From Candidatus Gottesmanbacteria bacterium (GTDB taxonomy: Bacteria; Patescibacteriota; Microgenomatia; JAMCYU01), in NCBI GenBank assembly GCA_043801155.1, contig JAZDMI010000021.1, forward strand, positions 2,683-66,682: DNA of 64,000 nucleotides, read 5' to 3'. Positions 36,647 through 43,198 of this stretch are shown in pieces. Each line of letters begins with the position of its first letter. Position 1 is the stretch's first letter. A program made the translations under genes and the position numbers. The notes under the pieces were generated by a model. The model searched no databases and was not told where the DNA came from. It saw only the letters and a program-made list of their open reading frames with translations.

Positions 36647-37519
36647 ATGACTTTTAATCCAAATGCTGTTTTCATTTCTCCTTCATCCATCTCTGATTTT
36701 AAAACATGTCCACAAACTTATTATTATCGGAATGTCTATAGAAATCCGAAGACTGGATTAAAAATACAAATAATTAATCCAAAACTAGCGCTTGGTGCAA
36801 CAGTGCATGATATATTAGCTCAATTCCTACACACCCAGGGAATAGAAAAAACTAAAGATCAATTACTCAATATCCTTCAGAGATATTGGGGACAGATTAC
36901 TGGTGAAAAAGGAGGATTTAAAACAGAAGAGGAAGAAAAACAATACAAAGAAAGGGCATCAAAAATGTTGGATATTTTTTGGGGAAATAACCATTTTAGG
37001 GAGGTACAACCGGTAAAACTACCCGATTTCCCAAAGGTATATTTTGATGACGATTTAATTCTCACTGGAAAACTTGACTGGATTGAGCTAGAGACAGAAA
37101 ATAAATATCACATCATTGACTTTAAAACTGGAGAAAACGAAGAACGAAGCGATTCTATGCAATTACCTATTTATGCCGTTCTTGCTTCAAATATTTTAAA
37201 AACCTCTGAAATAAAAGCAAGCTATTGGTATCTTGATAGAGATGCCGACTTGAAAAAATTCGATCTGCCCGATTTAAAAGAAACAACAGAAAAACTTAAA
37301 AAAATTGGTTATGTAATTAAAAATAGTCGGTTAACAAATTCTTTTAAATGCAGTTCGGGATACGAGTCGTGTTGGTCTTGTAAAGATTTGCTATCCATTA
37401 GCAATGGAAAGGGTAAACTTGTTTCTGTTGATTACAATCGTAAACAAGAAGTTTATATAATTCCTCCAACAGAAGATAAGCCTATATTAGAAAAACCTAT
37501 TGATGACATTCCTTTCTAA
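36647..37519 (+). CDS. PD-(D/E)XK nuclease, Cas4/RecB-like with 4-Cys cluster signature
   Basis: N-terminal FKTCPQ Cys. IIDFKTG core. QLPIYA. C-terminal C-x6-C-x2-C (CSSGYESCWSC). Confidence 0.7.
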   Translation: MTFNPNAVFISPSSISDFKTCPQTYYYRNVYRNPKTGLKIQIINPKLALGATVHDILAQFLHTQGIEKTKDQLLNILQRYWGQITGEKGGFKTEEEEKQYKERASKMLDIFWGNNHFREVQPVKLPDFPKVYFDDDLILTGKLDWIELETENKYHIIDFKTGENEERSDSMQLPIYAVLASNILKTSEIKASYWYLDRDADLKKFDLPDLKETTEKLKKIGYVIKNSRLTNSFKCSSGYESCWSCKDLLSISNGKGKLVSVDYNRKQEVYIIPPTEDKPILEKPIDDIPF

Positions 37520-38795: not shown

Positions 38796-38869
38796 ACTTT
38801 TTTCGGGTAAAAGGTTGGGATCACTGTAACAGAATTGGTTTCGCCAGTCAAATCCTTCTAAGAATTTTT

Positions 38870-38894
38870 ACCCCGTACTAGTCGGTACGGGACT
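38870..38894 (+). repeat. junction repeat with perfect hairpin CCCGTAC-tagtcg-GTACGGG
   Basis: 21 of 24 positions match 43198-43222, where the hairpin is degraded. Confidence 0.6.
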
Positions 38895-38902
38895 TCTTAA
38901 AA

Positions 38903-38931
38903 TTGCCTTTTTGGGTCTTCGATAATAATCA
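38903..38931 (+). promoter_or_regulatory. promoter-like module J8
   Basis: TTGCCT-TTTTGGGTCTTCGATAA-TAATCA. Confidence 0.45.
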
Positions 38932-38971
38932 AAATTTGTTGATTTGACGGGACAATATATAATAATAAGGT

Positions 38972-39277
38972 ATGAGAACACGGGCAGAAATTGAAAATAG
39001 GCCATCTTCCGGATCTAAATTAATAATTTGGAACAATGGACAGGGAAATTATTATGACTTTTTTAATTGTGGTGGAGAAAAAATACCAATAGAGGAGACT
39101 CTTGGGGGAGAACTATGTTTGCTTTGCGGGGTTGTTAGAGAACAACTAAAAAAGAATAACATCACCGGTTGTTTTACAATTTTTTCGTCCGACCTTCTTC
39201 CTGGTTCCAAAATTCAAGCAGCCACTAAAAAAGATTCAAAAGTAGCAGGAGTTCCCCTGATTCTTAAAATCTCCTAA
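38972..39277 (+). CDS. hypothetical protein
   Basis: 101-aa ORF with no motif I recognise. Confidence 0.45.
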   Translation: MRTRAEIENRPSSGSKLIIWNNGQGNYYDFFNCGGEKIPIEETLGGELCLLCGVVREQLKKNNITGCFTIFSSDLLPGSKIQAATKKDSKVAGVPLILKIS

Positions 39278-39349
39278 GATTTAACTTTTTTTACATTAAG
39301 ATTAAGACGGGTGGAATTTTGAACGTGGTAGGTTCATATCTTAGGATTT

Positions 39350-39378
39350 TTGCATTTTATTTTTTCTAGTTTCTATTA
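39350..39378 (+). promoter_or_regulatory. promoter-like module J9, pointing into the 3' end of the 694-aa minus-strand gene
   Basis: TTGCAT at 39350-39355 with a weak -10 (CTATTA). Preceded by GTGGTAGGTTCATATCTT, which is homologous to 34904-34923. Confidence 0.3.
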
Positions 39379-41463
39379 CTAGTAAATTTTTGACCGGTAA
39401 TCAACAATCATTATTTCCAACTTACCCTCATCTCTCATTTTAAGTAAGACCCTTCCGCCGGAATGAATATGAGGTAGGGGAACTCTTAAACGATAAACCC
39501 CATCTGAATCCTCGATTTTAACAAGATGAGGATCTAAAATTTGCTGGCGTTTATTAAAATTAATAATAGCTTGTTGAACAAAACCTCTTTCTTCTGTAGA
39601 AAATCCTTTCATTAAAAGTTCCAGTTCTTCAGACGTCGGTTCGATGATCGTTAGTTTTCCGGTTAAAGCCTGTTCTTCTTCGGTGACTGGTTTTTCTTCA
39701 CCATCTTTTTTAATAGTTTCCCTTGTTTCTTCAACTCTTATCTGCCTTCTTAATTCATAGGTAACATCATGAAAATGCACTTTTGGCAGCGATGACTTGA
39801 GTGGTTCTTGATTACCGTCCTTAAGAGTGTTTTTTAATTTTTGATGTTCCAGATAATCCGCTAAGTGCGTTAAGGTTTTCAGTACAATTTCCTGGCAACC
39901 TTGTTTGTAGATATGGTTATTGGATTCATTGATCGAATCAAGAACCATCCAGTCAAAAGTCTCTTTTGTCGCATCGATGCTTAAGAGAAGAAAAATTTCC
40001 TCATCTTCTTCACTTGTTTTATCTATAAACTCAAATGCCATACCAAATTTACGGGGATGATAAGGATCTGCTATGAGAGAAGCAGCGTCAGGTTTTTTTA
40101 AAAATTGTAAATTATTTGGTAATTGATCAGCATCTAAACTAAATTTTCTTTCCTTGTTAGTCTTAGTAATTCTGTCTATCTGTCTCTTGACCTCTTGCCA
40201 ATTAAAATCATTATCTGTTTCGGATATTTCTTCATTCGCTAAAATGTCTTTTAATTCTTCACCGCTAAGGACTATTTGTGCCAGTCTCATTTTTTTCCGG
40301 TAGTTTTCGATATTTTCAACTAGCTTCTTATAAAAAGGAATACTCGTTTCCTTTTTAACCAAATTTGTAGCTGCACGGTAGAATCCAATCGTTTGTATGG
40401 CAGAATTAAAGCCAAGGAGTAAAAATAAATATCGGCGATGATAAGTATTTTCGTCCTGGAGGTATTTCTCAAAAAGATTGATAAGTTCCATATCAGGTTG
40501 GCCATCTTTAGGAAAAAGACGCCTAAAGACTTCTTTTCTTAGCAGGGACAATTTATCTACCAGCTCTACTGCTTTTTCTACAATTTCAGTTGCTGGCTGA
40601 CTATTGGACCTAACTGCTTCTTGAATGTCTGTTTTAGAGATATCTGCCTTGAGGAATTGTGCTACTCTAACGCTAAATTGTGCAAAATCTCCCTCAATTG
40701 CCAAAGGATAATATTTAAGTAAAGGATTCCGGCTGATTTGTTCAGCAATAATATGTTCAGGTAGTTCTTCAAACGGTTCAATAGCTGATGACTCTACAAA
40801 TAAACGGACAAAAGGTACTAAGGATTCACGATCTTTATTAGAAAAGTTCATAAATTCAATTAATGAAGCTCCTTGAATAGAAAAATTAGTATGAGTTGAA
40901 TATTGATAATCGGAAAGAGTAAAGAAGTCTTCAGCCCCTTGATAAAAATTTCTCGTCTGGGCGAATCGTTTTAGTGAATTAATCTTTCCATGGCAATATA
41001 AAGAGAGCCCGAAATCCAATGCAAACTTGATACCTCTTATTTTACAATTTTTCCAGGATAATTCGGTGTCCTCGTTTAAAGACGAAGCTGGTTCGCCATC
41101 GGGAACTTTTTCCAGAAAACCATAGGCATTTTGCATATCATCTTGGATTTGTATTAGCTTTTTACTCCAGTCTTCAGTTGTTTCCCATCCGAAAGGGTTA
41201 ACTGTATCAGTTAAAGACTTAATATTATTTCCAAATTCATTTTTTTGCTTCATGGCTCGTATCAAATATTCTAGATAAGTAGGAACTTTCTTTTTCATAT
41301 CGTCTGTAAATACCTGATCCATATTTTTAAATAAATCTGATTCTAAAAGTGATTCAACGGTAGGCAAGTTAGTAGAATCCTGGTCTTCCGCCTTATCCAG
41401 GAGGTAGCCTTTAAGTGCGTTATCTGGGCCTTCAATATAATCTATTTCAAACTTAGCTGACAT
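39379..41463 (-). CDS. large orphan protein with a RelE/ParE-like C-terminal domain
   Basis: 694 aa. C-terminus YRLRVPLPHIHSGGRVLLKMRDEGKLEIMIVDYRSKIY matches the RelE/ParE pattern (YRLRV..YRvvY....v.vl.v.hR..iY). I do not recognise the N-terminal ~600 aa. Confidence 0.6.
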   Translation of the reverse strand: MSAKFEIDYIEGPDNALKGYLLDKAEDQDSTNLPTVESLLESDLFKNMDQVFTDDMKKKVPTYLEYLIRAMKQKNEFGNNIKSLTDTVNPFGWETTEDWSKKLIQIQDDMQNAYGFLEKVPDGEPASSLNEDTELSWKNCKIRGIKFALDFGLSLYCHGKINSLKRFAQTRNFYQGAEDFFTLSDYQYSTHTNFSIQGASLIEFMNFSNKDRESLVPFVRLFVESSAIEPFEELPEHIIAEQISRNPLLKYYPLAIEGDFAQFSVRVAQFLKADISKTDIQEAVRSNSQPATEIVEKAVELVDKLSLLRKEVFRRLFPKDGQPDMELINLFEKYLQDENTYHRRYLFLLLGFNSAIQTIGFYRAATNLVKKETSIPFYKKLVENIENYRKKMRLAQIVLSGEELKDILANEEISETDNDFNWQEVKRQIDRITKTNKERKFSLDADQLPNNLQFLKKPDAASLIADPYHPRKFGMAFEFIDKTSEEDEEIFLLLSIDATKETFDWMVLDSINESNNHIYKQGCQEIVLKTLTHLADYLEHQKLKNTLKDGNQEPLKSSLPKVHFHDVTYELRRQIRVEETRETIKKDGEEKPVTEEEQALTGKLTIIEPTSEELELLMKGFSTEERGFVQQAIINFNKRQQILDPHLVKIEDSDGVYRLRVPLPHIHSGGRVLLKMRDEGKLEIMIVDYRSKIY

Positions 41464-42428: not shown

Positions 42429-42457
42429 TTGCCTTTTTCTGATAAAATAAATAGATG
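42429..42457 (+). promoter_or_regulatory. promoter-like module J13
   Basis: TTGCCTTTTTCTG. The N17 hexamer TAGATG overlaps ATG 42455, so its function is doubtful. Confidence 0.3.
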
Positions 42458-43198
42458 AATAATTCTAAAAAAATTAAGGATATTGTAAAAAATTCTTACG
42501 CAGAAATTGCTAAAGCCTCTGATAGTTGTGGGTGCAGTTGTGGTTGTAGTTCTAACCAGACTGTTCAACGCCAAACACAACAAATAGGTTATTCCCCGGA
42601 AGAAATTAATCAAGCGCCTTCCGGTTCTAATCTTGGGCTTGGATGTGGCAACCCGGTGGCAATTGCTTCATTAAAAGAAGGGGAAATAGTTTTGGATTTA
42701 GGTTCCGGCGCAGGATTTGATGCTTTTTTAGCAGCGCAAAAGGTTGGGACAACGGGTAAAGTCATTGGTGTTGATATGACTGAGGAAATGCTTGTCAAAG
42801 CACGAGCTAACGCTATAAAAGGTGGTTTTACCAACGTTGAGTTCAGAGAAGGAGATATTGAAAATTTGCCCTTAGATGACAACTCGGTTGATGTTGTTAT
42901 TTCTAATTGCGTTATCAACCTTAGCCCGGATAAAGAAAAAGTATTTAAGGGAATTTATCGGGTACTTAAACCAGGTGGAAGACTCATGGTATCTGATACT
43001 GTACTTTCAAAACCATTACCGGATGAACTGCGGGAAAATGAAGAATTATTAACCGGATGTGTAAGTGGAGCTATCCTTAAAAAGGATTACCTGTCATTAC
43101 TCCAAAAAACAGGCTTTTCCAATATAAAAATACAAAAAGAAAGACCGGGGTTTCTTGCAGACTACAGTATAAGTATTACCTACTCAGCAGTCAAATAA
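42455..43198 (+). CDS. arsM: arsenite S-adenosylmethionine methyltransferase-like (ArsM family)
   Basis: [49 protein letters not shown]. Confidence 0.8.

Follow-up and report, generated by a model that had tools for sequence, protein, structure and literature searches.

The window analysed here, a 64,000-nucleotide stretch of Candidatus Gottesmanbacteria DNA (contig JAZDMI010000021.1, positions 2,683 to 66,682), carries on its minus strand a gene (39379..41463) for a 694-residue protein, the last ~93 residues of which are predicted to adopt the fold of the RelE/ParE toxin superfamily. The protein belongs to an undescribed family, every source-named member of which comes from Microgenomates-group bacteria of the candidate phyla radiation (CPR). 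The layout of the family is fixed and consists of a helical body of ~400 residues, an alpha/beta domain of ~130 residues, a disordered linker of ~45 residues with a conserved motif and a terminal RelE-type domain. Our functional reading of this protein, a RelE-type nuclease restrained within its own polypeptide chain, is plausible.

The gene is complete, with an ATG start and 694 codons followed by a stop codon at 39379-39381, exactly as an earlier note on this DNA, made from the sequence alone, had called it. Upstream of the ATG, the stop-to-stop frame has just three further codons. In the open reading frame (ORF) listing, the C-terminal end of the protein reads ...LEIMIVDYRSKIY, and its last residues are also written ...GKLEIMIVDYRSKIY. 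An exhaustive HMMER search found ~58 homologous proteins that are collinear with the window protein, and the ORF is therefore a real gene. The protein is identical to NCBI entry V1858_02890, which is labelled as a hypothetical protein of Candidatus Gottesmanbacteria bacterium and lies on a 272-kb contig, and it has no signal peptide, transmembrane segment or strongly hydrophobic segment. As the window contains rpoB/rpoC-sized ORFs and its G+C content is 32-42%, it looks chromosomal.

Fold of the C-terminal domain

The AlphaFold model of the full-length protein, built from an alignment of 50 sequences, has a mean predicted local distance difference test score (pLDDT) of 83.8 and a predicted template modelling score (pTM) of 0.74. 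In this model, residues 601-694 (39382..39663, minus strand) form a complete RelE/ParE-fold, or BECR, domain with the order beta1-alpha1-alpha2-beta2-beta3-beta4, which runs up to the last residue and has a pLDDT of mostly 78-95. When residues 598-694 were modelled in isolation, the pLDDT was 91.5 and the pTM was 0.82. Like the BECR fold, the modelled domain is compact: within ~90 residues, a short strand at the N-terminal end is followed by two helices and by an antiparallel sheet of three strands.

[quoted passage not shown] They include T. thermophilus RelE (score 9.7), M. tuberculosis RelE1 (8.3), E. coli HigB (8.2), M. jannaschii RelE3 (8.2), YafQ (7.7), P. horikoshii RelE (7.3), YoeB (7.0), ParE1 (6.9) and the CARF-RelE fusion Cami1 (6.1), and the full-length model yields the same list. 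In Foldseek, HigB toxins were the only high-probability matches (0.94-1.0). The earlier note had proposed a RelE/ParE-like C-terminus and had named profile and structure searches beforehand as the test by which the proposal could fail; the structure search returned a RelE-like fold. At the level of sequence, neither the whole window protein nor its C-terminus gave a match in Pfam, NCBIfam, PADLOC or among PDB sequences, and a comparison of the family profiles with PDB sequences gave no credible match.

Sequence relationship to RelE-like toxins

The sequence link to RelE-like toxins is weaker than the structural one, but the family-level profiles point to a real relationship. For the window protein itself, the profile check that had been suggested for its C-terminus (Pfam ParE_toxin, RelE, HigB and YoeB) came out empty: there are no matches to public RelE, ParE, HigB or YoeB profiles, even at E<=10 in Pfam, and none of the curated models (ParE_toxin, RelE, HigB, YoeB, YafQ and Gp49) is matched at its gathering score. 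Among the C-termini of 34 relatives, ParE_toxin is the top Pfam family, but it is found in only three, below threshold, with a best E-value of 0.0028, and the best E-value for Gp49 is 0.099.

The PHROGs profile of a “RelE-like toxin” (phrog_1213) matches 11 of these 34 C-termini, although not the window sequence itself. The best match, to relative P0022, has an E-value of 9.7e-10 and covers profile positions 8-88 of 88, and further matches were obtained with P0041 (1.7e-8) and P0016 (1.3e-5). The window sequence is tied to these relatives by a leave-one-out profile of their C-termini, from which it had been excluded and which scores it at 49 bits with an E-value of 2e-14. This profile match, together with the modelled RelE-like fold, places the RelE-like pattern of the last ~93 residues beyond chance.

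A second link comes from small toxins. A DNA-pattern scan of the species genomes for the terminal motif of the family (DI.YRKDIY) missed the large proteins altogether; apart from chance matches, it recovered four canonical RelE-type toxins of 78-89 residues. With the fished motif removed, two of these small toxins are still matched by the C-terminal profile of the family (E-values of 1.8e-6 and 2.2e-4), and the matches span alpha1-alpha2-beta2-beta3. Direct comparison with E. coli RelE was less informative. The pairwise resemblance put forward in the earlier note is insufficient alone, as BLAST against the single sequence gives an E-value of 0.14. The hhalign comparison of the family C-terminus with an E. 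coli RelE alignment, which is narrow (68-100% identity, built from the best 120 matches), has a probability of 1.3% and a P-value of 0.042; non-significant as it is, it places the family and E. coli RelE in the expected register.

These data bear on whether the resemblance to RelE arose by chance, or whether the domain is a decayed, non-functional remnant. The lack of a direct public-profile match to the window sequence, the non-significant hhalign result and the degenerate C-terminus of one relative, P0039, would all suit such an explanation. It is nevertheless already largely refuted, and we hold it to be the least probable of those considered here: the PHROGs E-values of relatives reach down to 1e-9, no other part of the protein is conserved as well as the domain (mean pairwise identity 29%), particular basic and aromatic positions in it are near-invariant, and its modelled fold is RelE-like.

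Catalytic positions

In E. coli RelE, the functional residues are K52, K54, R61, R81 and Y87; from its title, PDB entry 2kc8 shows only that an R81A/R83A mutant served for structural work. In the register given by motifs and profiles, as opposed to structural superposition, likely equivalents of most of these residues can be found in the alignment of 50 family members. Y657 (Y/F/W in 48 of 50) would correspond to Y51, R660 (R/K in 38) to K54, R671 (R in 49) to R61, R690 (R in 46) to R81 or R83, and Y694 (Y/F in 46) to Y87. The window protein itself has all five of these residues. The K52 position is variable across the family and is occupied by R658 in the window protein. Because likely equivalents of K54, R61, R81/R83 and Y87 are conserved, we infer that the terminal domain is probably an mRNase of the RelE type rather than a gyrase poison of the ParE type.

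A ParE-type domain would poison DNA gyrase and cleave no mRNA. One point against it is where the domain of this family stops, 0-8 residues past its last strand and a short helix, as ParE toxicity depends on C-terminal residues. The best weak Pfam match, which is to the ParE_toxin model, might seem to favor the ParE type. However, according to the survey by Gerdes (mBio 2025, PMC11980606), this model also holds E. coli RelE and other mRNases, and in precomputed annotations PF05016 is assigned to RelE homologues; the match is hence no argument for gyrase poisoning. The same survey describes ParE toxins as devoid of the catalytic residues of BECR RNases, whereas 92-98% of the present family keep the Arg, Arg and Tyr positions. 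We therefore consider a ParE-type activity very improbable.

Architecture of the family

Upstream of the terminal domain, the protein is composed of parts that differ strongly in their conservation. Residues 1-133 (41065..41463, minus strand, as are all the following coordinates) form a loosely conserved helical extension with a pLDDT of 32-92 and a mean pairwise identity of 15%, and the HMMER matches to relatives mostly start at residue ~130-200 or later. Residues 134-410 (40234..41064) form an all-helical body with a pLDDT mostly above 90 and a mean pairwise identity of 20%, which has no known family or fold. Residues 420-550 (39814..40206) form an alpha/beta domain that consists of a helix, five strands and a long helix, again with a pLDDT mostly above 90. 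It is the second-best conserved module (mean pairwise identity 26%), is found in all relatives of sufficient length and contains two nearly invariant residues, W505 and P511.

The alpha/beta domain is joined to the RelE-like domain by a charged basic linker (residues about 551-600, 39664..39813), which is modelled with a pLDDT of 40-55 and has a mean pairwise identity of 18%. Within it lies a motif, [KR]-E-R-[FY]-x-D-[PE]-[VI]-Y-x-L-R-[KR], the window copy of which is KVHFHDVTYELRR (residues 561-573, 39745..39783). According to the column counts over 50 sequences, Y569 is present in 36, R/K572 in 43 and D566 in 29.

According to module-specific profiles, the three modules and their order do not vary among the relatives long enough to tell. 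Of 57 family proteins, 56 have the RelE-like domain at their end, 0-8 residues from the C-terminus. Two members are outliers in their architecture: P0033 (800 residues) has 131 extra residues after the domain, and P0032 (871 residues) stands out by an N-terminal extension of ~250 residues.

The earlier note had been unable to assign the ~600 residues that precede the RelE-like domain, and the same is true after profile and structure searches: the searches with the full-length model give no known family or fold for the N-terminal ~550 residues. The antitoxin families RHH, HTH, Phd/YefM, ParD, HigA, BrnA and MqsA were not detected in residues 1-600 of the 50 members. A likeness of the N-terminal helices to pore formers of the ClyA/MakA type was rejected as non-specific.

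Family size and distribution

The exhaustive HMMER search covered 1.84 billion cluster representatives and gave 60 matches at E<=1e-3, 11 of them at E<=1e-10. One of the 60 is the query, and another, P0059, was dropped as a low-complexity false positive, which leaves ~58 relatives (clusters at 50% identity). They are 20-28% identical to the window protein, and their collinear alignment with it starts near residue 150 and extends to the C-terminus. Complete relatives have ~610-870 residues, mostly 620-700. The members with a named source come from metagenome-assembled genomes of Candidatus Microgenomates, Daviesbacteria, Gottesmanbacteria and the “Patescibacteria group”.

The protein had been described as an orphan, a label that these relatives remove, although a word-indexed search of 5.8 billion proteins with the window protein returned the query alone. 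That search is insensitive here: when the query was an alignment of 50 sequences, it gave only the first of them, while the other 49 are present in the same collection. Because these 49 members went unreturned, negative results of word-indexed searches do not amount to absence for divergent families.

Other collections gave little. Among 50 family members there is no consistent match in Pfam, NCBIfam or PADLOC, tblastn against phage and plasmid collections found no match to the family, and a single-protein search of genome, viral and metagenome contigs found no close relative of the window copy. As Pfam, NCBIfam and PADLOC do not see the family, its members are annotated only as hypothetical proteins.

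The only “stand-alone” copy of the RelE-like domain of this family is P0048, a 95-residue protein that is 38% identical to residues 601-694. It lies on a 1.1-kb contig (L005 745-1032), ~100 nucleotides downstream of an apparent transposase fragment (L005 2-640), which we take, from reading the sequence, to be of the IS630-type DDE class. P0048 may be the remnant of a disrupted full-length gene, and with a transposase-like fragment beside it, it was set aside as proof of a free-standing version.

Genomic context and evolution

No antitoxin-like gene had been noticed next to the window gene, and the closer look agrees with this. The flanking ORFs, a doubtful one of 101 codons downstream and those of 106, 82 and 121 codons upstream, lie on the opposite strand and have no match to antitoxin families even at E<=1. 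Thus a gene of 694 codons without a bicistronic antitoxin partner does not have the form of a type II toxin-antitoxin module. At the loci of eight relatives, the family gene is again solitary among housekeeping genes. The survey of the neighbours of homologues that the earlier note had recommended, carried out as an all-against-all comparison of nine loci, found no neighbour common to three or more genomes, and hence no conserved partner gene.

Two distant lineages do share a local arrangement. In a “Microgenomates” genome (L001) and a Daviesbacteria genome (L003), the family gene is found with the genes for L33, a GH1 glycosidase and a 241-residue protein. The syntenic neighbours are 73%, 69% and 40% identical between the two genomes, and the family protein is only 27% identical. 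The gene has therefore been retained vertically at that position, yet it evolves much faster than its surroundings.

Such surroundings raise the question of whether the protein is a housekeeping factor associated with the ribosome. Its RelE-like domain would then be a module that binds the A site or mRNA, or a constitutive nuclease of low activity, employed to survey mRNA, rescue ribosomes or control translation, and the gene would be a lineage-specific part of the Microgenomates core. This explanation requires no antitoxin and agrees with a solitary chromosomal gene found near DegV, EngB-/Obg-size GTPases, ThrRS/IF3/L20, DnaA/DnaN, SHMT and L33, with the local synteny described above, with a single copy per locus and a fixed architecture, and with the lack of a phage, plasmid or PADLOC link. 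On the other hand, 27% identity next to 69-73% for syntenic neighbours is unusual in a core translation factor, just ~58 clusters were detected, and the collections searched contain no close relative of the window copy. We regard the housekeeping role as less likely than not, but as the main rival of the restrained nuclease proposed below.

Possible mechanism

RelE-type toxins are normally under the control of a separate, labile antitoxin. Because the domain is kept complete in this family with no antitoxin nearby, it must be regulated differently. We propose, at a confidence evenly balanced between acceptance and doubt, that the protein is an antitoxin-free mRNA endonuclease of the RelE type, which is restrained in cis and shuts down translation when a signal releases it. 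The terminal domain would be an active, ribosome-dependent mRNA endonuclease like RelE. Either the N-terminal ~550 residues or the conserved linker motif, or both, would restrain it in cis until phage infection, stress or some other signal frees the nuclease, and the freed nuclease would then shut down translation. The restraint in cis is deduced from two circumstances, namely that there is no separate antitoxin and that RelE left unrestrained would be toxic. The fast evolution apparent from the sequences fits the role of a conflict gene. A self-contained gene, present once per locus, with no conserved neighbour and with an invariant architecture, suits this reading too.

A number of observations weigh against such a cis-restrained nuclease. 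The linker is modelled at low confidence (pLDDT 40-55), and cis-inhibition is purely hypothetical. Residues 1-600 contain no recognizable antitoxin-like or sensor-like domain. The correspondence with catalytic residues of RelE is one of motif and profile register and not of structural superposition; the window C-terminus matches no public RelE, ParE, HigB or YoeB profile, and its family is not significantly aligned with E. coli RelE by hhalign. Furthermore, the gene lies outside defence islands, has no phage or plasmid match and shows nothing consistent in PADLOC. Finally, its housekeeping surroundings and a syntenic position kept in two distant lineages fit a housekeeping function as well as they fit defence.

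A more specific version of the cis-restrained nuclease, which is possible but on the unlikely side, assigns both sensing and inhibition to the N-terminal ~550 residues. They would form a new sensor and autoinhibitory body, with a fold unlike those of solved structures, that silences the RelE nuclease in cis, possibly with the linker motif acting as a pseudo-antitoxin peptide, and releases it in response to a phage protein or a state of the ribosome.

The earlier note had listed sensor, cis-antitoxin and delivery module as options for the N-terminal region, and delivery is the least supported of the three. The N-terminal body would in that case serve secretion or translocation and bring the RelE-like nuclease into a cell of the host or a competitor of an episymbiotic CPR bacterium, as happens with polymorphic or CDI toxins that have BECR-fold tips. 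A signal peptide, transmembrane segments and strongly hydrophobic segments are all absent, neither an immunity gene alongside nor any conserved neighbour is present, and the C-terminal domain is never swapped for another toxin type, which is the opposite of what polymorphic toxins do. For the same reasons (no delivery segment, an invariant C-terminal domain and no conserved downstream gene) the family does not resemble polymorphic or contact-dependent toxins. A delivered effector is consequently improbable.

Comparison with known systems

The terminal domain resembles stand-alone RelE-type toxins such as E. coli and T. thermophilus RelE, M. jannaschii RelE3, HigB and YafQ in the Arg/Arg/Tyr register, and relatives link it to them by profile. 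Those toxins are ~90 residues long, whereas here the domain makes up the last 93 residues of a 694-residue protein, and unlike stand-alone RelE modules the family has no antitoxin gene either upstream or downstream in nine loci.

By analogy, the proposed restraint of the nuclease in cis would follow the same logic as that of single-chain Cami1 (CARF-RelE) and CapRel (a fused toxin-antitoxin). Cami1 (PDB 8phb) is a CARF-RelE effector of type III CRISPR systems that is activated by cyclic tetra-adenylate (PMC11229360). As in the window protein, a RelE-family nuclease and a larger body are combined in one polypeptide, and Cami1 is activated by a signal and not by the loss of an antitoxin (PMC11229360). 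The two differ in that no CARF or nucleotide-sensor domain is detectable here, that the 64-kb window has no CRISPR array or cas operon, and that the body of the family is ~550 residues of no known fold. CapRel is a fused toxin-antitoxin that is triggered directly by phage proteins (PMC9712102). CapRel and the mono-gene fusions of BECR toxins are similar to the family in that one gene encodes a toxin and its own presumed inhibitor, with no separate antitoxin; however, the toxin of CapRel is a tRNA-pyrophosphorylating toxSAS enzyme and not RelE.

The survey by Gerdes covers mono- and multidomain BECR toxins, and by its own account it left out many multidomain BECR proteins for which no antitoxin could be identified (PMC11980606). 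The fusions that it catalogues are short and have a recognizable antitoxin domain (YefM, ParD, HigA, BrnA, HTH or MqsA), whereas the non-toxin part of the present family has ~600 residues and no such domain. Two larger proteins described there, PtuZ and ToxM, are alike in that a BECR/RelE-like domain is embedded in a larger protein, and a role in defence was proposed for them. PtuZ combines a PIN-like N-domain with BECR and is encoded in a conserved operon of three genes, of which the other two encode an ATPase and a nuclease, and ToxM combines a transmembrane domain with BECR and has a cognate antitoxin, ToxR (PMC11980606). The family differs from both, as it has neither operon partners nor membrane segments.

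The supplementary tables of the survey, so far as they are accessible, have no Microgenomates, Gottesmanbacteria or Daviesbacteria entry, and the only multidomain Patescibacteria entry in them is a 159-residue gp49-HTH fusion (PMC11980606). As the family falls below Pfam thresholds, a survey seeded with Pfam would miss it. The suggestion that this is an undescribed architecture therefore stands in part. The particular fusion is absent from what is accessible of the recent multidomain RelE/ParE survey, but a RelE domain on a larger regulatory body has been published before, in Cami1, PtuZ, ToxM and fused toxin-antitoxins.

CPR bacteria have tiny genomes, in which each retained 2-kb gene is presumably useful. 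What distinguishes the candidate regulatory body of this family is that it is confidently modelled, has no recognizable relatives and, as far as source names show, is restricted to Microgenomates-group CPR bacteria, while none of Pfam, NCBIfam and PADLOC recognizes the family as a whole. Should the domain be an active mRNase, the body would serve translation shutdown as a new input module, much as CARF does in Cami1, and it would open a way to study phage defence or the control of translation in bacteria that are not yet culturable alone. If the more specific version, with a sensing and autoinhibitory body, is the correct reading, these ultra-small bacteria would possess a lineage-wide, vertically inherited RelE system that is free of antitoxin, in which a new module does the sensing for translation-shutdown immunity or for the quality control of ribosomes. 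The significance would be greater for an N-terminal body that acts as a new sensor, or for a family that is a core translation-control factor of Microgenomates.

Other features of the loci

Further neighbours of the gene in the window are DegV, a Cas4-like PD-(D/E)XK nuclease, DUF6498 and an S-adenosylmethionine (SAM) methyltransferase. The nuclease, the only cas-like gene nearby, is a solitary gene ~2 kb away (36647-37519, plus strand) that matches PDDEXK_1 with an E-value of 2e-25 and PADLOC Cas4 models with E-values down to 1.6e-9. Scans of the 64-kb window found neither a CRISPR array nor a tRNA gene nor an Rfam family at gathering score. The SAM-dependent methyltransferase (42455-43198, plus strand) matches Methyltransf_31 with an E-value of 2e-43 and has an N-terminal Cys-rich stretch, CGCSCGCSS; we presume that it resembles arsenite methyltransferases (ArsM).

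The gap of ~580 nucleotides that separates the gene, at its 3' end, from DegV (38796-39378) holds only the doubtful opposite-strand ORF of 101 codons (38972-39277), which has no family match. Within this gap there is a weak terminator-like hairpin on the minus strand (39246-39259) and no Rfam family. The counts in a promoter and terminator scan equal the shuffle expectation.

In two relatives, the family gene has an unrelated and complete toxin-antitoxin pair directly upstream, encoded on its own strand. In L001 it consists of a 78-residue ORF and a PIN toxin (5155-5786), and in L007 of BrnT and a CopG antitoxin (5278-5877). These pairs could be a coincidence in CPR genomes rich in toxin-antitoxin modules, or they could mark a small toxin-antitoxin hotspot. 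Just downstream of the family gene, L001 (7972-8420) and L010 (7568-8020) share a conserved hydrophobic ORF of ~77 residues, which seems unrelated; in L001 it is preceded by what we take, from reading the sequence by eye, to be a tRNA-like gene.

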